The position numbers were made by a program, and so were the translations under genes. DNA of 64,000 bases. Origin: a bacterium (lineage in GTDB: Bacteria; Zhuqueibacterota; Zhuqueibacteria; Residuimicrobiales; Krinioviventaceae). Shown here one piece after another: positions 7,416-42,954 of the stretch (within the stretch, counting starts at the first letter, position 1; every line of letters begins with the position of its first letter). The notes beneath the pieces were generated by a model that had not been told where the DNA came from, made no database searches, and saw only the letters and a program-made list of their open reading frames with translations. Location of the stretch: positions 128,001 through 192,000 of the forward strand of contig CAXXFV010000009.1 of NCBI GenBank assembly GCA_963674595.2, read 5' to 3'.

Positions 7416-10400
7416 ATGACAGAGACTCAAAGACAAATAGATATAGCACGAAAAAGTTTACTTGATTTGACAAATCGAAATAGACTAATCAATTTTAAAT
7501 TAACCAAAAATACATCGCTGAAAGTAGTTGATGAATTACCAACGGAAATTTACAATCTTTTGGTAATTCAAGAAAAAAGCATGGCATTTAAAGCGACAAT
7601 TGAAAACTTAGATGATACGAAGAGCTTGGATTTATTTACTAATGTAGGTAATAAAAAAAATGATAATAGCTTTGCCAGAATTGATGATAGTGAATTACCT
7701 AAGAATTATACTGATTTGTTTCTTCAAACTGACCAGGTAAAGGAAAAGCTTTCTATTAAATTAAGAAAAATCTCGCAGGATGCGAGAGCAATATTAGAGG
7801 AACAAGGTTATAACATTTTATATTTAGCGCTTGGTTTCTTAGAGTATGAAGATGTTGAGCATGAAAGAACAAGACGTAAAGCTCCGCTCATATTAGTCCC
7901 GATTGAACTTTATAGAACTAAAGTAAAAAGTGATTTTAAGATAAAATGGACAGGTGAAGAAATATTGCACAACTTTGCTTTAAAGGAAAAATTAATAGAG
8001 CAAGGCATTATTTTACCAGATTTTGAGATGCCGGACGAAAAGTCTGAATTAGATAGATATTTTAATCGTGTTGAAAAGGAAATAAACACTCATGAAAATT
8101 GGCAGGTAAACAAAGACATTTACTTATCATTCTTTAGTTTTGCCAAATTTGTAATGTATAAAGATCTTGATGCCGATAGTTGGTCTGATATACATTTGTC
8201 TGAAAACAAACTGCTTGAAGGATTGTTTGAAAAAAATGAAGAGATTTTAACTGCAAATGATTTTAATGAAGATGATATTGATAAAAAGCTTGAAACAAAA
8301 AAGTTATTTCATATTTTAGACGCTGATCCATCACAGATATGTGTAATTGAAAATGCGAAAGCTGGTAAGAACTTAGTCGTAGAGGGGCCACCAGGAACAG
8401 GTAAATCACAAACCATAGCCAATATTATTGCTGAGTTACTTGCTAATGAAAAAACAGTATTGTTCGTTTGTGAAAAAATGGCAGCTCTTGAAGTGGTGAA
8501 AAAAAGATTGGACCAAACAGGTATTGGACAATTTTGTCTAGAACTACATAGTAAAAAAACAAACAAAAATGAGTTTTTGAAAGAGCTCGAAAAGTGTGCA
8601 TTTACAACTAGTGAAACAATACCAACATTTGACACTAAATTCAGCAATTTTGAAATATTAAAGAATGAGCTCAACGATTATGCGAAAACTTTAAGGACGA
8701 GGGTGGGAAATTTAGAATTTAATGTATATGAATTACTGATGCTAAAAGAGAAAAGTTTGTTGCATTTCGAAAGGGTGAAGAGAAATGAACTCGATTTATC
8801 GATTGGAGATTGGATTAATATAACTTCTGAGGATTATACCGAGGCAATAAAATCGCTTAATGACCTATCACAAACAATACAGCTTGTACAACCTATAAAT
8901 AAAAATCCATGGAAATGGTGTGCCCCAAATCAGATTATACTACCAAGTGATGTGAAAATTATCAAGGAGAAACTTAATTATGCCATTAGAAACCTAACTT
9001 TGTATGCAAATAGCTTAAAATTTTTATCAACCTTGAGTGGTATCAGAATTCCAAGAACCATGAGTAATCTTAAAGAAGCTGTTAATGCAGCTGTAATGAT
9101 TTCAAAAGCAGGAAAAGTTGATGAAAACGTACTTCTAAACGAAGAATGGAACACCCCTTCAAACATTGCAAGTAAGATTGTTGAAACGATTCGTAAAATA
9201 AAGAACCTTAAGCCTATATACTCACAAAAGTTTAGAAACAATGCATCCGGTTGCGATATTGTATTCTTATTGAAGGAATATAAAGAAACCTATAACAAAA
9301 TATTTAAAATTTTCTACCCACGCTACTATAAAACGAAGAAAATGCTAAAAAGTATTTATCTTAATTCAATCCAAAGAAACAAATATCTGATACTTGAAGA
9401 TCTTTTAATGTTGAAAGAATACATTAATGCTAAGAACTACATAAAAAATATCGAAACCAAGGGGCTTGCTCTCTTTGGAACACATTGGAATGGAGAAAAT
9501 AGTAATCCTGAAATGCTAGAGTATTTGTCGGGATGGCTTGTTTCATTCAGAAAGGAATTGGTCGCACAAACTTTAAGTAATAATTCACTTAAATTAGTCT
9601 CAAACGGGATTTCGAAGGAGAATATAGTAAAAACTTTGAAAAAACTAAAAACAGAGTATATTAATTTTGCACAATCTATTAAAACGTTAGATAGAATTTT
9701 AAAGCCAAATTATGATAAATATTTTGAAATGAAGTTTGAGAATGCAGATATTAATAAAATTTATAATTTACTAAAAATGTGGGAAAAGCATACTGACAGA
9801 ATTCAAAAATGGACACAATTTTTACCATATATTGAACGATGTAGAAAAACAATAGCATGGCCTATTGCTGATTATTTATTTATGAATAATTTATATTCAG
9901 AAGATATCGTCCCTAGTTTTCAAAGTTGCTTTGCTGACTTTTTTATCCGACATGCATTTGAAACGATGCCAACACTAAATAATTTTGTTGCAAATTTTCA
10001 TCAGAAGAGAATAAATTCCTTTATTGAAATTGACCAAGAATTAATTAAGTTAAATAGAGTGAGGTTATATAACAAATTAAGTGCTGCGAAACCCAAAATA
10101 TTCTATGGCATATCACCTGATTCTGAAGTGGGCCTTTTAGTGGGCGAGTTTAATAAAAAAAGGCGGCATATGCCAATAAGAAGACTCCTATCTGCAATAC
10201 CTAAATTAGTACAGAAAATAAAGCCGTGTTTTATGATGAGTCCAATCTCAATAGCACAATATTTAAAGCCAGGAAATGTTAAATTTGATGTGATTATATT
10301 CGATGAAGCGAGCCAAATCAAGCCACAAGATTCTTTAGGTGCATTTTTACGTGCAAAACAAGCTATTGTTATTGGGGACACAAGGCAATTACCACCAACA

Positions 10401-12176
10401 AGTTTCTTTGATTTTATAGTGGACTCTGAAGATGATGGAAATTTTATATCTTCTATTTCAGATCTGGATAGTATACTACACTTATGCAAACAAAGATACC
10501 CAACACTGATGCTCAAGTGGCACTATAGAAGTAAACATGAGTCATTAATTGCTGTGTCCAATAACCAGTTTTATGAAAACAAACTTTTAGTCTACCCTTC
10601 AGCGACCTCACAATCAGAAAAATTAGGGCTCCATTTAAAATATTATAGTGACACAGTTTATGATAGAGGTAAGAGTCAGAAAAATTTAAAAGAGGCACAG
10701 ATTGTTGCAAAAGCTGCATTTGATCATTTTAAAAGGTCCCCGGACAAGAGTTTAGGAATAGGGACTTTTAGTATAAAACAGCAAGAAGCAATATTGGACT
10801 ACATCGAATTAATGTTACAGAAGAATCCCGAAATGGAAAACCATTTTTCTTCGCAGAAAGAAGAAAATTTTTTTGTAAAGAATTTGGAGACAATACAGGG
10901 TGACGAGCGAGATGTTATATTTATTAGTATTGGGTACGGAAAAGATGTAAACGGTCGAATTACCAATAATTTTGGCCCACTAAACCATGATGGGGGGGAA
11001 CGAAGATTAAATGTATTAATTACTAGAGCAAGAGAGAAAACCGTAGTTTTCTCAAATTTTAGAGCAATAGACATGCAGTATAGTAATGGCTTTTCGAAGG
11101 GAGTTAAGTCATTAAAACTATTTATGCAATATGCTGAAAGTAAAGAGATGCCTTATGAGGAGCAGTTTTTAGAAGACGCGGATTCACCGTTTGAGGAGGC
11201 AGTTTGTGATTTTCTAGTTGACAATGGATTTGAAGTTAGGAAACAAGTTGGATGTACCGGTTTTCGTGTTGATTTAGCAATAGTTGACGCAAAAGCCCCT
11301 GGAAAGTACTTACTAGGGATTGAATGCGACGGGGCAAAATATCACAGTTCTCCTGTTGCTAGGGATAGGGATAGACTACGACAACAGATACTTGAACAAA
11401 TGGGCTGGGTCATATATAGAATTTGGTCAACAGATTGGTATCGGAATAGAAACGAAGCACAAAAAGAGCTATTAGCATTCATACAAAGTTTAAATGATAG
11501 AGAAGACGTGGGAAATGACAAGGATGTTAATATTGAAAAAAATGGAAAGGAAGAAGAGGAAAAAAGTAAAATAAATAATTGTATTACCACTTATAAGCCA
11601 ACAAATTTTATCAAAAAAACTAAAAAATACAAGATGGCTACACAAAAGGATACTATTGGATTTAAAAGTTTTGATTTATGTGAGGAGTTTGATATAGCAA
11701 AAATAATAACTCAAATAGTAAAAATTGAAAGTCCAATCCATAATGATTATTTGATAAATAGATTGCGAATAATTTATGAACTAAAGAGGATTGGAGAAAG
11801 AATAATGGATAAGTTAGAATCAGCAATCTCTTTCGCTGTTAGATCGAAGATGATCAAACGTGATGGTGACTTTTATTTAGAAAAATATAATAAAAAGATA
11901 ACACCCCGATATCGGCAGGAAAAAAAAGAATTAGATTTATCGAAAATATATACAAAAGAAATAGAACAGGCGATTAAGTTTGTTTTGAAACACCAGCTTT
12001 CAACCTCACTTGAGGATTTGCTATATCAGGCTGCTAAAGTGATAGGTTTTAAGACTGTAAATCTGCAAACAAAAGAGAAAATTAAAAGAATCACTCTTGA
12101 AATGCTAACAAATTATGAATTAGAGTTTGATAGTAATGATTTTATTAAAATAGCCAAAAATGATAGCGACGAATAG
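7416..12176 (+). CDS. DUF4011 / SF1 (UPF1-like) helicase / Vsr-like (MTES_1575) nuclease / DUF3320-type protein (Hhe-like architecture)
   Basis: LLDLTNRNRLINF, GPPGTGKSQT, IFDEASQ, GDTRQLPP, HYRS, IQGDERD, RRLNVLITRAR, DSPFEEAV...GIECDG..YHS...RDRDRLRQ. Confidence 0.92.
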   Translation: MTETQRQIDIARKSLLDLTNRNRLINFKLTKNTSLKVVDELPTEIYNLLVIQEKSMAFKATIENLDDTKSLDLFTNVGNKKNDNSFARIDDSELPKNYTDLFLQTDQVKEKLSIKLRKISQDARAILEEQGYNILYLALGFLEYEDVEHERTRRKAPLILVPIELYRTKVKSDFKIKWTGEEILHNFALKEKLIEQGIILPDFEMPDEKSELDRYFNRVEKEINTHENWQVNKDIYLSFFSFAKFVMYKDLDADSWSDIHLSENKLLEGLFEKNEEILTANDFNEDDIDKKLETKKLFHILDADPSQICVIENAKAGKNLVVEGPPGTGKSQTIANIIAELLANEKTVLFVCEKMAALEVVKKRLDQTGIGQFCLELHSKKTNKNEFLKELEKCAFTTSETIPTFDTKFSNFEILKNELNDYAKTLRTRVGNLEFNVYELLMLKEKSLLHFERVKRNELDLSIGDWINITSEDYTEAIKSLNDLSQTIQLVQPINKNPWKWCAPNQIILPSDVKIIKEKLNYAIRNLTLYANSLKFLSTLSGIRIPRTMSNLKEAVNAAVMISKAGKVDENVLLNEEWNTPSNIASKIVETIRKIKNLKPIYSQKFRNNASGCDIVFLLKEYKETYNKIFKIFYPRYYKTKKMLKSIYLNSIQRNKYLILEDLLMLKEYINAKNYIKNIETKGLALFGTHWNGENSNPEMLEYLSGWLVSFRKELVAQTLSNNSLKLVSNGISKENIVKTLKKLKTEYINFAQSIKTLDRILKPNYDKYFEMKFENADINKIYNLLKMWEKHTDRIQKWTQFLPYIERCRKTIAWPIADYLFMNNLYSEDIVPSFQSCFADFFIRHAFETMPTLNNFVANFHQKRINSFIEIDQELIKLNRVRLYNKLSAAKPKIFYGISPDSEVGLLVGEFNKKRRHMPIRRLLSAIPKLVQKIKPCFMMSPISIAQYLKPGNVKFDVIIFDEASQIKPQDSLGAFLRAKQAIVIGDTRQLPPTSFFDFIVDSEDDGNFISSISDLDSILHLCKQRYPTLMLKWHYRSKHESLIAVSNNQFYENKLLVYPSATSQSEKLGLHLKYYSDTVYDRGKSQKNLKEAQIVAKAAFDHFKRSPDKSLGIGTFSIKQQEAILDYIELMLQKNPEMENHFSSQKEENFFVKNLETIQGDERDVIFISIGYGKDVNGRITNNFGPLNHDGGERRLNVLITRAREKTVVFSNFRAIDMQYSNGFSKGVKSLKLFMQYAESKEMPYEEQFLEDADSPFEEAVCDFLVDNGFEVRKQVGCTGFRVDLAIVDAKAPGKYLLGIECDGAKYHSSPVARDRDRLRQQILEQMGWVIYRIWSTDWYRNRNEAQKELLAFIQSLNDREDVGNDKDVNIEKNGKEEEEKSKINNCITTYKPTNFIKKTKKYKMATQKDTIGFKSFDLCEEFDIAKIITQIVKIESPIHNDYLINRLRIIYELKRIGERIMDKLESAISFAVRSKMIKRDGDFYLEKYNKKITPRYRQEKKELDLSKIYTKEIEQAIKFVLKHQLSTSLEDLLYQAAKVIGFKTVNLQTKEKIKRITLEMLTNYELEFDSNDFIKIAKNDSDE

Positions 12177-12417: not shown

Positions 12418-13968
12418 ATGTCATTTATCAATCGGGACTGGCTGCAGGATTTATATGCTCCGCCTGGCTTTTTTAATGACATTGCCAAAGGTATAAAACC
12501 TCAAACCGAAATGCCGCAGTTTATCGTGTTCATCAAGCCGGTTCAGGTCGGAATAACCGAGCGCCTTTTAGTTGAACTCTTGCATTATGTTTCCAGTGGA
12601 TTACGTGGTTTGTATGTCATGCCGAACCAAACCCTGAGATCGAACTTTGTACATGACCGAATTGATAAACTTCTCAGTTATGTTCCCTTGTACAAAAGTC
12701 ATTTGGATGAAGGAGGTGAAAGTGACAGTGTTTTACAGAAACATTATGGTAAAGGGACCATGCGATTTGTAGGATCGAATTCAAGGACAGAGTTTGTTGA
12801 AAATCCGGTTGATATCGCTTTTGTTGATGAATATGATGAATCAGACATGGACAACCTGGACCAGTTAAAAGACAGGTTAAAAGCATCTGAATATAAAATG
12901 CTTAGATATTCGTCACGACCCACTGTTGAAAATTGTGGTGTGGATGGTTTATACCGGTCTACGAATCAATCCCGATACCTGACCCGGTGTCAGCATTGCA
13001 ACAAATACATTGAACTTGACTGGTTTAAACATGTTGTTCGGCAGGTTGATTCTGAGGGTTTGATTTATAAAGTCATTAAAGAAGAAAATGGCAAACCTCA
13101 AATTATATGTGATAAATGTGAAAAGATTATATATGAACCATGGGTCGGTGAATGGATTGCCAAATACCCGGATAAACCGAGAGTCGGTTACCGGTTTTCA
13201 AGGTTGATCAGTTTTGATACTGATCTTTTGGAATTGTGGAATGAATTTCAGGAAGCTCTTGGAGATACGACCAAGACACAATTGTTTCACAATTCAAATC
13301 TGGGCCGTGCTTTTGCTCCAAAGGGAAGTAAAATAACTGAAGCTTTGATGGAAAAGTGTAAAGATGATTATCTCATGCCGTCTACGGGAAATAATACTTT
13401 TATGGGAGTTGATCCAGGTGGACGGCATCATTATTTCATCTGGGAACGATATAATGGAAGAAAACGACTTGTTGCTTGTGGTGCGGCGTATGATTGGGAT
13501 ACACTGGATTTTCTGATTGATCAGTATAATGTTGAAGTATGTACAATTGATGGTGAATATGATACTACGAAAGCAAAAGAGTTACAGTTAATGAGACCTG
13601 GTAAGGTATGGTTGTGTTGGTATAAAAAAGGGGGGAGCTTACAGGATCAGACAGTTGACATTGATAATAAAATTATTGCTCTTGACCGGACACAAGCTCT
13701 TGATCGTGTTTTAAAGAATATTTTAAAAAGTGAACAGGATGGATTTATCCTTCCGAGAAACTGGAGAAAGGTATCTGATGGTGAGTTGTTGGACCATTTT
13801 ACATTACCAGTCAGGTATTTTGACCCAAATACAAATCGTCAGGTTTGGAGTAAGCCCATTAGTGGAGACCATTTATTACATGCCGCAGCTTATTCTTTAA
13901 TCAGTGAAGAAATTGGTGGAACCATAGGGGGATCAATGGTGTGGAGCAGAGCTGGAAAGGCTAGATAA
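12418..13968 (+). CDS. Phage terminase large subunit (lambda GpA-like)
   Basis: KPVQVGITE (GpA-type Walker A), FVDEYDE Walker B, CQHC...CDKC zinc ribbon, RNase H-like MGVDPG and DHLLHAAAY; N-terminus may be short. Confidence 0.88.
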   Translation: MSFINRDWLQDLYAPPGFFNDIAKGIKPQTEMPQFIVFIKPVQVGITERLLVELLHYVSSGLRGLYVMPNQTLRSNFVHDRIDKLLSYVPLYKSHLDEGGESDSVLQKHYGKGTMRFVGSNSRTEFVENPVDIAFVDEYDESDMDNLDQLKDRLKASEYKMLRYSSRPTVENCGVDGLYRSTNQSRYLTRCQHCNKYIELDWFKHVVRQVDSEGLIYKVIKEENGKPQIICDKCEKIIYEPWVGEWIAKYPDKPRVGYRFSRLISFDTDLLELWNEFQEALGDTTKTQLFHNSNLGRAFAPKGSKITEALMEKCKDDYLMPSTGNNTFMGVDPGGRHHYFIWERYNGRKRLVACGAAYDWDTLDFLIDQYNVEVCTIDGEYDTTKAKELQLMRPGKVWLCWYKKGGSLQDQTVDIDNKIIALDRTQALDRVLKNILKSEQDGFILPRNWRKVSDGELLDHFTLPVRYFDPNTNRQVWSKPISGDHLLHAAAYSLISEEIGGTIGGSMVWSRAGKAR

Positions 13969-20353: not shown

Positions 20354-20506
20354 AAGTGTTTAGTTTAAAATTTATTTGTTAAAAACAGTGAGCAAGCAGG
20401 CTGGGGCTGTATTTGAGATTTGGCAACTAACAAAAATATAGTGATTAACTGTTGGGTCCAAAATGATGAAGTCAACCTGTGATTGAGGAATATGACTGTT
20501 TTCGTA

Positions 20507-20529
20507 AGCTCTATTTTTGGAGCTTTTTT
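20507..20529 (+). terminator. Intrinsic terminator
   Basis: AAGCTCTA...TGGAGCTT followed by a T-run. Confidence 0.55.
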
Positions 20530-20662
20530 ATTTTTATTATGGGTGAATTACCCACAAAATATGATCCTCGGATATTTGATATATTTTTAAAATTTGCTTG
20601 CTCAGGTTTAATAAAATTTGTATTATTTAATTGACTTGATCAACACAGAGGGATTAAAATAT

Positions 20663-20757
20663 AACGGACTACATGACTGCATTGTACTAACCGAAGACTA
20701 GGGAGTATCCCGAACCTACCTTCCATAGTGCATTGTCTCTCATGGGTCCGTTTTTTT
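20663..20757 (+). ncRNA. Candidate small structured RNA upstream of the portal gene
   Basis: TTGACT-18 bp-TAAAAT promoter at 20631-20660; nested stems AACGGAC/GTCCGTT, CATGA/TCATG, TGTACTA/TAGTGCA, GAAG/CTTC, TAGG/CCTA; ends in a T8 run. Confidence 0.45.
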
Positions 20758-20890
20758 ATTGCAATTCCATCCAAGAGAAACTGCCTTATCTCAAGCTATG
20801 GGTGTATTACCCACAAAATATTGATTAATTACCCCTATTCTGCTATATATAGAATGTGTTGTTTAAATATATTCTATATATGGGCAGTTA

Positions 20891-21598
20891 ATGAACCTTC
20901 CAAAATTCAATCTTAATAAATATTTCCCACCAAAACAATCCAACAATGTTATTGTTAAATCCCAACTTTATTCTGCAAGTGACAGCCCGTTTCAGACCTA
21001 TTTAAACGGATATGAGCCGTTACGGTACAATTTAAAGATTTACAATATTCTCCGCGAAGCCATCCCTATTTTAGATGTTGCTGTGTTAAAGCTTCGGAGA
21101 TTGATCGGGGATTTTGAATATCGTTGTGATAATCCGAACGTTTTAAAAGCTTTGAACAACTTTAAAAAAGAAATCAAGGTCGGATATTTTCACAAAGGAC
21201 TACACGGGTGTTTACAACAAGTCTATGATTCAGCTCTGGCAAATGGTTATGGTGTCTTTGAGACAGTTCCTTTTGCCGGGTTAAATGGTGTTGACCGGTT
21301 AAAAGTCGGTGATGCTTCAAAGGTCCGTTTTATCCGGAAAGACGGCAGACTGTGGTTGGCTTCCATATCTCATGATGCTGCAAAACCTGTTATTTTAGAA
21401 CACCCGGAATTTGTTCAGTATTTGACATTTGATTTAAGAGACGGCCATCCCCAGGGTGTGAGTCTGTTTAATTCCATGCCTTTTGTTGCTGAGATATTAT
21501 TAAGAATTCAGCAATCGATAAAGAATGCTGTTGTCAGGATCGGTGATCCGACATTTGTGTTACTGATTGAAGGAGGGGTCTCAATCGTTCCGTGGTAA
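20891..21598 (+). pseudogene. Phage portal-like protein, C-terminally truncated
   Basis: YNILREAIPILDVAVLKLRRLIGDF, DSALANGYGVFE, HPQGVSLFNSMPFV..IL..I...RIGDP resemble a portal N-terminal half; last 6 codons derive from the repeat at 21578. Confidence 0.7.
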
Positions 21599-21764
21599 TT
21601 AGGCCTTTTCATGTTTTCACTGTCTCAATCTCAGCGGAGCGTAGCGACGCAAGGCCGCCCTCCATAGATTATTGATTTTGAAACATTGCAAAGCAAGCCA
21701 TAGAGAACAATCCTTTCGAACTCGCCACAAACGGCCCCTCCGTGGTGATTAGGTCTATTTCTAC
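21578..21764 (-). CRISPR. Degenerate CRISPR-like repeat pair; second repeat split by a ~105 bp insertion; no cas genes
   Basis: Repeat 1 GTCTCAATCGTTCCGTGGTAATTAGGCCTTTTCATG (21578-21613); repeat 2 GTCTCAATC (21622-30) plus CCTCCGTGGTGATTAGGTCTATTTCTAC (21737-64); the reconstructed minus strand is ~37 nt ending GGATTGAGAC. Confidence 0.5.
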
Positions 21765-21900
21765 TTAATTCGAGTGATTTCTCGTTTTTTATTGTTACAT
21801 TAATTCATAGTAACTAAAATCATTAAAACCATTTAATGGAATTGTGTTTAATGCCTCTTTTGGACTAGACCAGGTTCACATTATTTTTTTTAAATGAGGT

Positions 21901-22578
21901 TTGAAAAAACTCTTGAAATTAAAATCTATTAGTATTTTTATTGCAGATGATAATTGTCTGCTCCTTGAAGGTCTCGTCTCCATGTTAAAAGAACAGAGGG
22001 ATTTTACTGTTTTAGGCACCGCATCCTGCGGTCAGAATGCTATTGAACAAATAATTGAATTACAACCCGATGTAGCACTTATAGACATTGGCATGCCTGA
22101 CAAAGACGGGCTGGAAGTGACACAAATTTTGCATCAGAAATTACCCAAAATAAAAGTGATTATTCTTGGTTTGGTAGATTTGACTGATGAAATTATGGCC
22201 TGTATCGAAGCCGGGGCAACAGGATATGTATTAAAAGAAGACTCTTTTGAGCACCTGGTTGACACGATTCGAGCTGTTTACCAAAATGAAACATTCTGTT
22301 CACCCCGCATGGCGGCTTCGCTTTTCTCACGGATTGTCGAGTTGACAAAAGAAACCAGGGGACAAATACCAACAAATTCTGTAAACCTTACAGGGCGGGA
22401 GCTGGATGTAATAAATCTGATTGCAGAAGGCCTGCCGAATAAAGAAATTGCCAAACGGCTTTTTATAGAAACACAGACAGTAAAAAATCATATCCATAAC
22501 ATTCTTGACAAGCTGCAATTGCATAACCGCTTTGAAGCTGTAAACTATGCCCGTGAACGCAGTCTGTTAAAAAAATAA
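21901..22578 (+). CDS. NarL/LuxR-family response regulator
   Basis: IFIADD, PDVALIDIGMP, LTGRELDVINLIAEGLPNKEIA, TVKNHIHNIL. Confidence 0.95.
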   Translation: MKKLLKLKSISIFIADDNCLLLEGLVSMLKEQRDFTVLGTASCGQNAIEQIIELQPDVALIDIGMPDKDGLEVTQILHQKLPKIKVIILGLVDLTDEIMACIEAGATGYVLKEDSFEHLVDTIRAVYQNETFCSPRMAASLFSRIVELTKETRGQIPTNSVNLTGRELDVINLIAEGLPNKEIAKRLFIETQTVKNHIHNILDKLQLHNRFEAVNYARERSLLKK

Positions 22579-24189: not shown

Positions 24190-24346
24190 TGCGTATTCCG
24201 GAAGTCTGCAACTAGTTCCGGCTGAAAGTTTACCACTGGACAATCCAAACCTTTAGACAATTTTTATTTATAGAGGTGGCAGTTTTCAGCCGGATTGGGT
24301 GGCAACTTTCACCGGAATGGGTGGCAATTTTACTCCGGAATATGCA
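24190..24346. mobile_element. IS21-family miniature remnant (both ends, no transposase)
   Basis: Terminal inverted repeats TGCGTATTCCGG / CCGGAATATGCA; three tandem GGTGGCA...CCGGA subterminal repeats; flanks CCTTC/ACTTC may be a decayed target duplication. Confidence 0.75.
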
Positions 24347-26806: not shown

Positions 26807-27193
26807 TTTTAATAATGTTGGTAAACATTTAAAAACGATATTTTGTAAATGAAAGACCGGCACAAAATAAATTAGCATACTATTTGGCTATTTTAAAAAA
26901 TGTGTAGCAAATTTGTAGTACCTGAAAATAGTAAATATTTGCTTTTTACTGTTGAATTAAGGTTAAAATCGTTTGTGATTTTAATTTATAATTTTTATAA
27001 TTAATTGTACAGGTTAAATAGGCGAGGAATTGACTGATCCTGTCATTGGGAATTGAAACAGCCTTTGGCGCAAATCTATAGATGATGTAATAAATAGTTT
27101 TTTTTAATGGATTTCGGCTTTGATTACTGATAGATACTTGAAAAACAAGAACCGATATTAATAAAATATTCATTTTTGGTCAGGATAATAATT

Positions 27194-27850
27194 GTGTCAA
27201 AAATACAGATTTTGTTAATCGAAGACAACAACCTTCTGAGAGAAGGTATCGCTGCCATGCTCAACGATCATAGTGAATTCAAAGTCATCGCAAAATCTGA
27301 AGATGGTGATGCGTTGCTTCAGGTAAAGAGCCTGAGGCAGCCCCCCGATGTTGTCCTTTTGGATCTGGGTCTGGAAAAAGTTAATAGTTTAAAGTTGATG
27401 GTCGTTCTTAAGAAAGAATTACCCACGACAAAGGTCATCGCAATGGACATTCTCCCCGATCACGTCGATATTATTGAGTTTGTGAAAGCCGGGGGATCCG
27501 GATTCATTCTTAAAAATGCCCCTTTAATGGATTGGATCGAAACCATCAAGATTGTCGCAACAGGTGAAAAAGTATTGCCCCCGGTTTTGACCCAATCACT
27601 CTTTACACAGATCGTCGATTTAGCCCTCAAAAAGAACCAGGGCATACCCACCGACTCTTACCAATTTACGAGTCGAGAACATCAAGTCGTCGATCTGATT
27701 GCGAAAGGCCTGAGCAACAAAGAAATTGCTGAATCACTCCACATCGCCACCTATACTGTCAAGAGCCATGTGCACAATATCCTGGAAAAGCTGGAACTCA
27801 GCACACGTCTGCAGATAGCGGCCTTTGTTCGCAAGGGAGAATCCGAATGA
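27194..27850 (+). CDS. NarL/LuxR-family response regulator (copy 1)
   Basis: ILLIED, PDVVLLD, GLSNKEIA, TVKSHVHNIL; near-identical to 41548-42204. Confidence 0.95.
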   Translation: MSKIQILLIEDNNLLREGIAAMLNDHSEFKVIAKSEDGDALLQVKSLRQPPDVVLLDLGLEKVNSLKLMVVLKKELPTTKVIAMDILPDHVDIIEFVKAGGSGFILKNAPLMDWIETIKIVATGEKVLPPVLTQSLFTQIVDLALKKNQGIPTDSYQFTSREHQVVDLIAKGLSNKEIAESLHIATYTVKSHVHNILEKLELSTRLQIAAFVRKGESE

Positions 27851-28600
27851 TCGGGTTCACATACTTATAATCATTCACTTTTTAAAAAACATTACATCAC
27901 CCCCTCCTGCTTTATCTCCTGAATAACGCATTTTTAAATTTCCTGAATATTATCTCATGTTTTTCCCTACAAGGAATTAGTTCTTTATAGTACTAAAGAA
28001 CGAGTTCCTTTTTCATCCTTTTGGGCGATTGACTTTAGGGTTGAATTTGATTAACTACTATTATCAACAAAATTATACAATGAAACATATAGTGATGACA
28101 TAGATATTTAAAATCAAGTCAAAAAAAATAAGAGACCAAACAATGCAACTGAGCATTCATTATTATGTCCTGTTATTGAGCGAACAAATGAGCAGGCTTT
28201 ACGAGGGATTTCGAGACAAACTCATTGATATTCAAAACACGCATTTTCCGTTTGAAACTACAATTGATGTTGGTAATCCTGCCTCCAAAGACATACAATT
28301 GAAAAAATTTTATCACCAAACAGACCAGCACTTTGCCCATTATTATAAACAAGATCCACTTGCATTAGTGGTAGTCGGCGAAGAGAGAAGCCAGGCCATT
28401 TTTAAAACTTTGACGAAGCATAGGGATGAATATATCGGCGTGGTTGAAGGCGATTATACCACCACTTCTCTGCACGATTTGGGCAAGATTATATGGCCCG
28501 TCGTCAAGGAGGCCATCGCGGGTGTAAATAAAAATGCCATGCGTGATCTGGAAATAGCGGTCGAGAGGCATAAAGTCGTTTTCGGAATTGACTTGGTGGG
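27242..28600 (+). repeat. 1359 bp direct repeat, copy 1
   Basis: Matches 41596-42954 (offset 14354) with about six substitutions seen by eye. Confidence 0.95.
27973..28008. promoter_or_regulatory. Inverted repeat downstream of the LuxR gene (possible operator); repeated at 42327-42362
   Basis: GGAATTAGTTCTTTA-TAGTAC-TAAAGAACGAGTTCC. Confidence 0.4.
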
Positions 28601-41124: not shown

Positions 41125-41547
41125 AAGCTGTTTTGTATTTTTTATTTTTCGAAAACGCAAATTGAACAACACCAAGCGTACTTTTTCTCTGAACAGGTCC
41201 TGAATGCTATTAGTCACTTTTATCGTCAGATGTAATTTGACCGAAACAATTTTTTTGGGGATCCCAAATAAAACTTGCATTTTAGGCTATTTATTATATA
41301 TGCATATACTTATAAATAATCTTACGTATTGAAACTGAATAATTGTACAATATACGATGTTCGTAAAGTTGGTCGAATAAATGTGAGAAAATGTTTCTGC
41401 ACTGTTTATTTTAACAAAATACTAAAAGACAGAGATATTATTCACTTTCTGGCGATGCCTTGGAGATTTTGTACGTATAATTTGAGTTGCATTATTGTTA
41501 TCCATCTTGAAATGAAAAGTTAATATATTTCAAAAAAAGGTAAAATT

Positions 41548-42204
41548 TTGGCAAAAATACAAATCTTGTTGATCGAAGACAACAAGATTCTGAGGGAAGG
41601 TATCGCTGCCATGCTCAACGATCATAGTGAATTCAAAGTCATCGCAAAATCTGAAGATGGTGATGCGTTGCTTCAGGTAAAGAGCCTGAGGCAGCCCCCC
41701 GATGTTGTCCTTTTGGATCTGGGTCTGGAAAAAGTTAATAGTTTAAAGTTGATGGTCGTTCTTAAGAAAGAATTACCCACGACAAAGGTCATCGCAATGG
41801 ACATTCTCCCCGATCACGTCGATATTATTGAGTTTGTGAAAGCCGGGGGATCTGGATTCATTCTTAAAAATGCCCCTTTAATGGATTGGATCGAAACCAT
41901 CAAGATTGTCGCAACAGGTGAAAAAGTATTGCCCCCGGTTTTGACCCAATCACTCTTTACACAGATCGTCGATTTAGCCCTCAAAAAGAACCAGGGCATA
42001 CCCACCGACTCTTACCAATTTACGAGTCGAGAACATCAAGTCGTCGATCTGATTGCGAAAGGCCTGAGCAACAAAGAAATTGCTGAATCACTCCACATCG
42101 CCACCTATACTGTCAAGAGCCATGTGCACAATATCCTGGAAAAGCTGGAGCTCAGCACACGTCTGCAGATAGCGGCCTTTGTTCGCAAGGGAGAATCCGA
42201 ATGA
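41548..42204 (+). CDS. NarL/LuxR-family response regulator (copy 2)
   Basis: Same motifs as the 27194 copy. Confidence 0.95.
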   Translation: MAKIQILLIEDNKILREGIAAMLNDHSEFKVIAKSEDGDALLQVKSLRQPPDVVLLDLGLEKVNSLKLMVVLKKELPTTKVIAMDILPDHVDIIEFVKAGGSGFILKNAPLMDWIETIKIVATGEKVLPPVLTQSLFTQIVDLALKKNQGIPTDSYQFTSREHQVVDLIAKGLSNKEIAESLHIATYTVKSHVHNILEKLELSTRLQIAAFVRKGESE

Positions 42205-42954
42205 TCGGATTCACATACTTATAATCATTCACTTTTTAAAAAACATTACATCACACCCTCCTGCTTTATCTCCTGCATAACGCATTTTTAAATTTCCTGA
42301 ATATTATCTCATGTTTTTCCCTACAAGGAATTAGTTCTTTATAGTACTAAAGAACGAGTTCCTTTTTCATCCTTTTGGGCGATTGACTTTAGGGTTGAAT
42401 TTGATTAACTACTATTATCAACAAAATTATACAATGAAACATATAGTGATGACATAGATATTTAAAATCAAGTCAAAAAAAATAAGAGACCAAACAATGC
42501 AACTGAGCATTCATTATTATGTCCTGTTATTGAGCGAACAAATGAGCAGGCTTTACGAGGGATTTCGAGACAAACTCATTGATATTCAAAACACGCATTT
42601 TCCGTTTGAAATTACAATTGATGTTGGTAATCCTGCCTCCAAAGACATACAATTGAAAAAATTTTATCACCAAACAGACCAGCACTTTGCCCATTATTAT
42701 AAACAAGATCCACTTGCATTAGTGGTAGTCGGCGAAGAGAGAAGCCAGGCCATTTTTAAAACTTTGACGAAGCATAGGGATGAATATATCGGCGTGGTTG
42801 AAGGCGATTATACCACCACTTCTCTGCACGATTTGGGCAAGATTATATGGCCCGTCGTCAAGGAGGCCATCGCGGGTGTAAATAAAAATGCCATGCGTGA
42901 TCTGGAAATAGCGGTCGAGAGGCATAAAGTCGTTTTCGGAATTGACTTGGTGGG
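41596..42954 (+). repeat. 1359 bp direct repeat, copy 2
   Basis: Matches 27242-28600. Confidence 0.95.

Follow-up and report, generated by a model that had tools for sequence, protein, structure and literature searches.

How a phage portal gene comes to run directly into a repeat of a CRISPR array was the question raised by positions 20891-21764 of a 64,000-nucleotide (nt) stretch of a bacterial genome (hereafter the window; C9:128001-192000 of a 6.6-Mb genome in 37 contigs). All coordinates are those of the window unless a contig is named. An earlier interpretation made without database searches (the sequence-only reading) had held that the portal frame enters a 36-nt repeat at its first base and stops six codons later, and both points were borne out. 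The truncated open reading frame (ORF; 20891-21598, plus strand) encodes 235 amino acids (aa), comprising residues 1-229 of a 467-aa portal protein followed by six residues (VSIVPW) and a stop codon supplied by the repeat; portal sequence runs to 21577, and GTCTCAATC... begins at 21578. Portal homology reaching the repeat had been named beforehand as one of two points on which that reading would stand or fall, and the alignment ends exactly at 21577, because both intact copies in the genome continue beyond it as AGAGGTACAAAT... for 238 further residues. The sequence that follows (21578-21764) is an orphaned copy of the trailer of the host's own type III CRISPR arrays, and of the trailer only, with no leader, no spacers and no cas genes.

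All parts of this module lie on the minus strand. The last, or 'junction', repeat (21578-21613, 36 nt) has a degenerate 5' end and the variant ...TAATTACCACGGAACGATTGAGAC, and is followed at the spacer position by an 8-nt linker (21614-21621, sense AGTGAAAA). The penultimate repeat spans 21622-21764 and is split: in plus-strand order it consists of an 8-9-nt tag part (21622-21629, sense ATTGAGAC), a 106-nt insert (21630-21735) situated at, or 1 nt from, the predicted Cas6 cut (29|8), and the 29 nt of the 5' repeat part (21736-21764). The position of the insert is ambiguous by 1 nt because of a C/G run. The 29-nt part equals the array consensus and was found as an exact match in 53 array copies of the same genome, and the reconstructed 37-mer was identical to the consensus A repeat (repA) of the host arrays, so that the similarity to CRISPR repeats suspected earlier proved to be identity with a resident family. 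At up to three mismatches, the 27-nt stretch 21738-21764 had 81 copies in the genome (0 for the reversed control), while a 28-nt repeat core, allowing up to six substitutions, had 84 copies (78 on contig C3, 5 on C29 and 1 in the window). Within the window, CCGTGGTRATTAGG was matched three times at up to two mismatches (two exact) against 0.38 expected, a number reached by none of 100 shuffles, and GTCTCAATC was matched twice against 0.36 expected, which 3 of 100 shuffles reached. The two window repeats do not form regular array units, being separated by an 8-nt linker where spacers elsewhere in the genome measure 34-57 nt. No cas genes were found among the ORFs scanned at 7.4-30.8 kb of the window; the cas loci are on contig C3.

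The portal break had been taken for a one-off, which did not hold: the 5' region of the portal gene has five copies in this genome, two of them intact and three cut after codon 229 at the same nucleotide (...GAAGGAGGG|GTCTCAATCGTTCCGTGG...), and the same junction, with the same junction-repeat variant, caps two real arrays on contig C3. The cut copies are those of the window, of C3:66461 (the end of array A2) and of C3:111921, where an A-like repeat closes, in phase, an array that otherwise consists of 48 repeats of a second family, B. In all three loci the junction falls at the first base after a complete repeat, and the three junction repeats share the variant ...TAATTACCACGGAACG... in place of the consensus ...TAATCACCACGGAGGG...; this variant is absent elsewhere among the 84 repeat copies. 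The full-length portal matches phrog_30703 (E 1.3e-58); the intact 467-aa genes (C10:44232-45634 and C3:9501-10904) are each followed by matches to minor-head and major-head families (phrog_3922, E 1.9e-36), and their assignment as portals rests on full-length similarity together with this head-gene cluster; the window ORF, covering residues 1-229, has no Pfam match of its own. The portal-family profile also matched the solved portal gp45 (9gb5; E 2.9e-4), and a 39%-identical homologue was found in an IMG/VR contig between a terminase-sized ORF and a 372-aa ORF. The 3' half of the gene was present only in the two intact copies (blastn against the genome); the fusions are therefore amputations rather than insertions. 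A reciprocal translocation was rejected, as the genome holds no orphan portal 3' half. A 234-aa protein considered as a second truncated portal (P0002) was likewise rejected, being a single deviant form of a full-length viral portal, in which homology is lost beyond residue 219, probably via a frameshift. As a separate observation, the two intact head clusters (L031, C3:1398-11000; L035, C10:36060-45731) were 99.2% identical over 6.5 kb and 92.3% identical over the adjoining 3.1 kb with the portal and minor-head genes, and the sharp boundary suggests recent exchange of one module only.

The earlier suggestion to look for cas6 and type III genes elsewhere in the genome led to Cas6-bearing type III loci on contig C3. 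Array A1 (C3:43997-50132) comprises 63 full repeats in two blocks parted by a 1.3-kb insertion, A2 (C3:65354-66310) has 13 repeats, and a third A-type array with 4 repeats lies on contig C29; family B forms three arrays at C3:99335-111920, and its repeat has the same last ten bases (GGATTGAGAC) as the A repeat. Between A1 and A2 lie genes for Cas6, a small protein with a weak Cas10 palm2 match, four RAMP (repeat-associated mysterious protein) family members and an S_4TM membrane effector, as well as a group-II-intron-type reverse transcriptase (RT), Cas1, Cas2 and an IS21 element. The B locus carries a Cas10 palm2 protein, RAMPs of the Csx10, Csx7 and TIGR03986 types, ring-nuclease-like and CARF-like proteins, Cas6, and an adaptation module in which an RT-primase-polymerase fusion accompanies Cas1 and Cas2; Cas1 is thus RT-linked in both loci. 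The two loci together contain the Cas10-type subunit, Cas7/Cas5-family RAMPs and Cas6 that mark type III systems, with Cas6 in both. The Cas10 palm2 match was above the Pfam cut-off in the B locus (E 3.2e-9) and below it in the A locus (E 4.3e-4), and the systems are named type III and III-D-like, and no finer, because most NCBIfam matches of the cas proteins (those to Csx10, Csx7 and TIGR03986-type models among them) were below the curated cut-offs. The whole CRISPR island (C3:44-112 kb; L032, L033, L176 and L034) holds the two type III loci, the IS21 element and two arrays with an insertion of about 1.3 kb each. Array polarity is settled by three features: Cas2, Cas1 and RT genes adjoin the uniform end of A1, the A1 and A2 leaders share about 650 nt at 78% identity, and the repeat ends in ATTGAGAC away from these leaders. 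The split repeat is always at the far end.

That a second repeat follows 8 nt on and is split by an insert of about 105 bp was correct (the insert measures 106 nt), but its interpretation as a local insertion was not, since the penultimate repeat of every A-type array (A1, A2 and the array on C29) carries an insert of this size at, or 1 nt from, the predicted Cas6 cut. The C29 array also has a second, partial copy of the insert-bearing repeat, and a 38-nt relic of the insert lies at C3:112891-112928. Compared with the A2 trailer at C3:66 kb, the window copy showed no difference in the junction repeat (0 of 36), the linker (0 of 8), the tag part (0 of 9, over 21622-21630), the last 8 nt of the insert (0 of 8) and the 29-nt 5' repeat part (0 of 29), and a single difference in the insert block adjoining the tag (1 of 29). 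These blocks thus differ at 1 position in 119, against 27 of 68 in the insert centre, a pattern of conserved ends and free centre which suggests that the ends matter. No structure is claimed for the split repeat, because a double change was seen in only 1 of 25 pairs of its consensus fold; nor was the fold more stable than those of shuffled sequences (z -0.56 on the minus strand, z +0.69 on the plus strand). Rfam gave no match in the whole window at gathering thresholds and two chance-level matches in 20400-21950 in E-value mode. The insert is not a mobile miniature inverted-repeat transposable element, as it occurs in trailers and nowhere else in the genome.

A region built of multi-copy sequence invites the objection that the junction is a chimeric join made by the assembler at a repeated sequence. 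This we consider extremely improbable: a 388-nt Logan contig of sequencing run X2 covers 21548-21935 with a single difference and takes in 30 nt of portal sequence, both repeats and the regulator upstream region beyond them, the copies differ from one another by 6-8%, which is enough for unique placement, and the window sits on a 218-kb contig. The portal flank on the left of the X2 contig is one nucleotide short of the 31 nt used as the bridging criterion. Near-identical pieces of the region were also present in Logan contigs of runs X1 and X7; the three runs may include the source sample, and are taken as support for the assembly and not as an independent occurrence.

As to how a trailer came to be joined to a portal gene, the account that we favour, on balance and from sequence comparison, is that the junction was probably made by recombination of array ends with prophage-like elements at a repeat/spacer boundary. 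An old terminal spacer matching the portal gene would have crossed over with its protospacer in a resident element; alternatively, a later crossover would have taken place between an already fused fragment of 0.7-1 kb and another element. Either crossover would delete the portal 3' half and the head genes, amputating the element within the portal. Recombination between phages and CRISPR loci through spacer/protospacer homology is reportedly known from staphylococcal work, and a process of that kind would likewise give a repeat followed by contiguous phage sequence from the first spacer base; the present case differs in being a fixed chromosomal amputation of prophage-like elements, found three times, with no surviving matching spacer. 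The piece of phage DNA involved is not the short captured end envisaged at first, but the left arm of a phage-like element, with a terminase gene about 7 kb upstream of the portal.

A transcript running across the last repeat would, if cut by Cas6, yield a CRISPR RNA (crRNA) consisting of the tag AUUGAGAC and portal-antisense sequence. Cas6 processing leaves an 8-nt tag, and the product foreseen in the sequence-only reading, an 8-nt ATTGAGAC handle joined to sequence antisense to the portal, would follow from this geometry. Transcripts of the two C3 copies would originate in their arrays; the copy in the window may be silent. Between the 37 nt adjoining the junction and the intact portals there are 2-6 differences, and the flank of the intact target (AGAGGTAC; AGAGGUAC in the mRNA) matches the tag complement GTCTCAAT at 1 of 8 positions, whereas the mRNA of the fused copy itself carries the full tag complement. 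Such a crRNA would therefore be expected to spare the fused copy, with its tag-complementary flank, and to recognise the intact copies as foreign. In type III systems, according to one study, a full match of tag and anti-tag represses the immune response and leaves RNA cleavage unaffected (PMC7214462).

A number of results weigh against this account of origin and guide function. None of the 146 spacers matched the portal gene or any DNA outside the arrays, and the postulated portal spacer was thus not seen; nor does the genome contain a reciprocal product of the recombination. The DNA upstream of the window repeats on the minus strand is AT-rich, as had been noted, but it is not the leader it was thought to resemble: it has no similarity to the A1 and A2 leaders and, from 21774 on, is the upstream region of a response-regulator gene, to which contig C13 has a paralogous stretch at 93.7% identity. 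A sigma-70 scan for a minus-strand promoter gave 5 sites against 5.3 expected, in a host that may use other promoters, and no TAnnTTTG motif was found near the window repeats. The sigma-70 scans are of limited use here, because the host encodes a type IX secretion system (T9SS) sorting domain, in a protein next to the portal fragment at C3:66 kb (L033 17317-19254; C3:67316-69253), which suggests that the host belongs to Bacteroidota and may thus have other promoters. Beyond this genome, searching 18 others of the family with a 321-nt query recovered no part of it, and 42 other genomes of the order gave portal homologues in four, all full-length, and nothing comparable to the junction. A scan of viral contigs returned neither a portal relative nor the repeat, and the single match to the junction in a scan of one metagenome was a chance match in an unrelated ORF. 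The five portal copies form a star, with 2 of 32 informative sites grouping the truncated copies; conflicting informative sites at this divergence can be homoplasy. Several fusion events are favoured by this star-like divergence, by synonymous differences as close as 3 nt to the junction and by the different cargo on each arm, while the repeat variant shared by the three junctions favours a single event.

Outside the points just listed, GenBank phages yielded portals at up to 32% identity and no DNA match, and a scan of genome contigs with an unspecific 16-mer returned 118 stretches, none of which resembled 20400-21900 by blastn. Recent gene conversion was rejected for the portal copies, which share no long identical tracts.

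The exactness of the repeat border is also compatible with the aberrant Cas1-Cas2 capture that had been put forward at the outset. A long phage DNA or a portal mRNA fragment with the 3' end ...GAAGGAGGG would, on that proposal, have been joined to the repeat border by RT-linked Cas1-Cas2 in a half-site reaction and then fixed by repair. In Cas1-Cas2 integration the bottom strand of the repeat is attacked at its 5' end by a 3' end, and the strand polarity read from the junction is the one expected; both adaptation modules include a reverse transcriptase, and the right end of the phage sequence is fixed at the same nucleotide while the upstream content varies. Spacer integration, however, normally takes place at the leader-proximal repeat, and the event seen here is at the trailer end. 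The captured piece, moreover, would be a multi-kb arm with promoters and a terminase gene, and not of spacer or transcript size, there is no direct repeat on its far side, and the Cas1 of the A locus matches just positions 2-244 of a 334-position model. We regard an integrase origin as doubtful, and recombination of array ends with prophage-like elements as the better account.

Whether the fused copies have been kept for a function is a separate matter. One proposal is that the last repeat serves as a hard-wired guide of type III and the 235-aa fragment as a decoy that poisons head assembly, or as a toxin, whose mRNA, bearing the perfect anti-tag, would be silently cleaved by the effector and released when the effector is blocked, as a type III counterpart of CrePA and CreTA; CrePA offers a precedent in a captured, shortened phage protein under CRISPR control (bioRxiv 2024.01.05.574328). 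Pairwise, the truncated portals showed 39/5, 43/4 and 56/7 synonymous/nonsynonymous differences (S=152, N=535), giving synonymous divergence (dS) of 0.31-0.50 and ratios of nonsynonymous to synonymous divergence (dN/dS) of 0.021-0.030, and the intact pair showed 51/3 with a dN/dS of 0.013. In the last 45 nt before the junction, all six differences between C3:66 kb and the window are synonymous, one of them being the change 3 nt from the junction. The 97 nt upstream of the gene (20794-20890) differ between the window and each of the other four copies at just 5-7 positions, and the near-invariance of junction repeat, linker and flanks beside the variable insert centre, like the convergent orientation with full tag complementarity, would be consistent with maintenance. 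Taken alone, the low dN/dS of the truncated ORF would mean that it is kept by selection, but the four terminase genes, two of which stand on amputated arms, are all open and bear the same signature (dS 0.39-0.48, dN/dS 0.030-0.043), which may reflect divergence before capture. From these comparisons, either selection would act on the amputated arms as a whole, or the copies would have diverged while still functional phages, with the cut coming afterwards; a late cut is hard to square with the common junction and repeat variant, unless it was site-directed. The arrangement was, furthermore, seen in this genome only among the genomes compared, and a structure model of the portal (predicted local distance difference test score, pLDDT, 47) was too poor for a fold search or for domain boundaries, and hence to show residues 1-229 as a domain. 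A maintained guide-and-decoy module is, on this evidence, an unlikely explanation.

More generally, the three fusions might not go back to a single old accident but be what type III immunity to a family of temperate phages produces again and again: recurrent recombination of an array's last unit with newly resident elements at one portal protospacer, or recurrent capture by its RT-Cas1 module at the same RNA or DNA end, would amputate the element and leave a self-tolerated, hard-wired portal-antisense guide, possibly with an effector-checked portal decoy. We put this forward as speculation and think it rather unlikely in this complete form. The 'decayed mini-array' and the 'guide against related phages' of the sequence-only reading are both still viable descriptions of the window copy.

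A role as an RNA anti-CRISPR (Racr) had also been raised and received no specific support. In that explanation a solitary repeat, acting as Racr or as a Cas6 sponge, would serve the phage-like element, and it is true that the repeats match the host system, come without spacers and lie at the edge of such an element; Racrs have been described as solitary repeat units (SRUs) in viral genomes (PMC10651486). Yet the identical module ends real host arrays, which makes it host array sequence; its two repeats, 8 nt apart, are not solitary by the SRUFinder rule (PMC10651486), the promoter scans found nothing to express it, and the element it caps is amputated. The likeness therefore stops at repeat mimicry without spacers at a mobile-element edge (PMC10651486), and the window module differs in being a host trailer with paired repeats and without a shown promoter. 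A service to the element is accordingly very improbable for the paired repeats, and within the element itself the degenerate repeat at 20618-20648 would make the better SRU.

Trailers of CRISPR arrays are commonly regarded as inert. In its working the module would come closest to an array trailer whose last 'spacer' is fixed: it shares with trailers and orphan arrays the host-array repeat, the leader-distal position and the degenerate last repeat, and the window copy, lacking cas genes, resembles an orphan locus. It differs in the conserved 106-nt insert at the predicted Cas6 site of the penultimate repeat in every A-type array, in that the 'trailer' is here a phage gene joined at the exact repeat border, and in being an orphan without any spacer. 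Type III targeting that depends on transcription reportedly allows conditional tolerance of prophages; in like manner, a guide antisense to a late gene would act only upon induction of the element, but the guide would here be the fused gene itself, with self-tolerance built in through the repeat flank and not an acquired spacer. With CreTA, CrePA and the regulatory mini-arrays the module has in common degenerate repeats out of array register beside a captured, shortened phage-derived ORF, whereas those systems use a spacer partly matching a promoter and DNA-binding effectors of type I or V (bioRxiv 2024.01.05.574328; bioRxiv 2023.03.03.530964). In the present case the complementarity is complete and lies at the 3' end of the ORF and its mRNA rather than at a promoter, the system is type III, the two repeats are parted by an 8-nt linker, and the window copy stands outside any cas locus; it was not classed as a mini-array of that type. 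Searches of open-access papers and bioRxiv, supplements aside, brought up neither a report of array ends joined to a phage gene nor one of a CreTA analogue of type III.

The kinds of process behind the feature, array trailers and array-phage recombination, are thus already known; what this genome adds is that one and the same module, structured and conserved in part, terminates all A-type arrays and that three array ends are joined at the repeat border to the same portal codon. If the junctions are scars, they would be a natural record of array-prophage recombination at spacer positions, able to disarm prophages. If the last repeat is processed, the resulting guide would owe nothing to spacer acquisition and would bring its self-tolerance with it. 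In either case, one genome with tag-complementary and non-complementary copies of the same target offers a natural test of tag/anti-tag discrimination. The insert placed where Cas6 is predicted to cut the penultimate repeat stands apart from these points.

The element cut at the junction was traced through its terminase large-subunit gene (12418-13968, plus strand; PF05876, E 1.9e-23), the four genome copies of which include three paralogues at 89-91% identity to that of the window. Two of the paralogues (C10 and C3:117-119 kb) are followed by a portal copy 4-8 kb downstream, and for the third (C3:27.5-29.4 kb) the distance to the intact portal of C3:9.5-10.9 kb is about 17 kb. The terminase-portal interval differs in each copy and carries sensor kinases and a lipase in the window. 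The window and C3:112-122 kb (copy E3) are left arms of a phage-like element that end at the junction. The left arm is retained in each amputated copy, with the terminase 4-7 kb upstream in the window and in E3.

Upstream of the portal ORF, the region 20761-20890 (plus strand) contains a palindromic box, TATGGGTGTATTACCCACAAAATAT, at 20797-20821 and an inverted repeat at 20845-20881. A 25-nt box with an internal palindrome (TATGGGTG(A/T)ATTACCCACAAAATAT) precedes every portal copy, in the window at 20538-20562 and at 20797-20821, and is a possible operator. The degenerate A-type repeat-like sequence (20618-20648) is followed by a conserved element of about 110 nt that ends in a T-run, the two together spanning 20618-20760 (plus strand). 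This stretch is present in five copies, the others being C10:45755-45936, C25:13517-13705, C3:112722-112907 and C3:43715-43896, the last at the very end of the A1 trailer; it has no match in Rfam and is a candidate element-borne solitary repeat or small RNA. The segment is not a unit bounded by inverted repeats, as homology to the intact element passes the left repeat-like sequence and extends to 20575.

Directly upstream of the terminase gene, 7416-12176 (plus strand) encodes a 1586-aa protein with DUF4011, superfamily-1 helicase (AAA_11/AAA_12) and MTES_1575 restriction-endonuclease-like domains, which looks like a defence gene. Further downstream in the window, a 1.4-kb duplication of 99% identity (27190-28600 and 41544-42954, the latter C9:169544-170954) includes a LuxR-type response regulator and a baeRF-family protein. 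An M50 peptidase/CBS gene opens with three copies of a 23-nt tandem repeat (24275-24341), relatives of which occur at C3:61.7-61.8 kb, in the IS21 region of the cas locus, and on contigs C25, C5 and C22.

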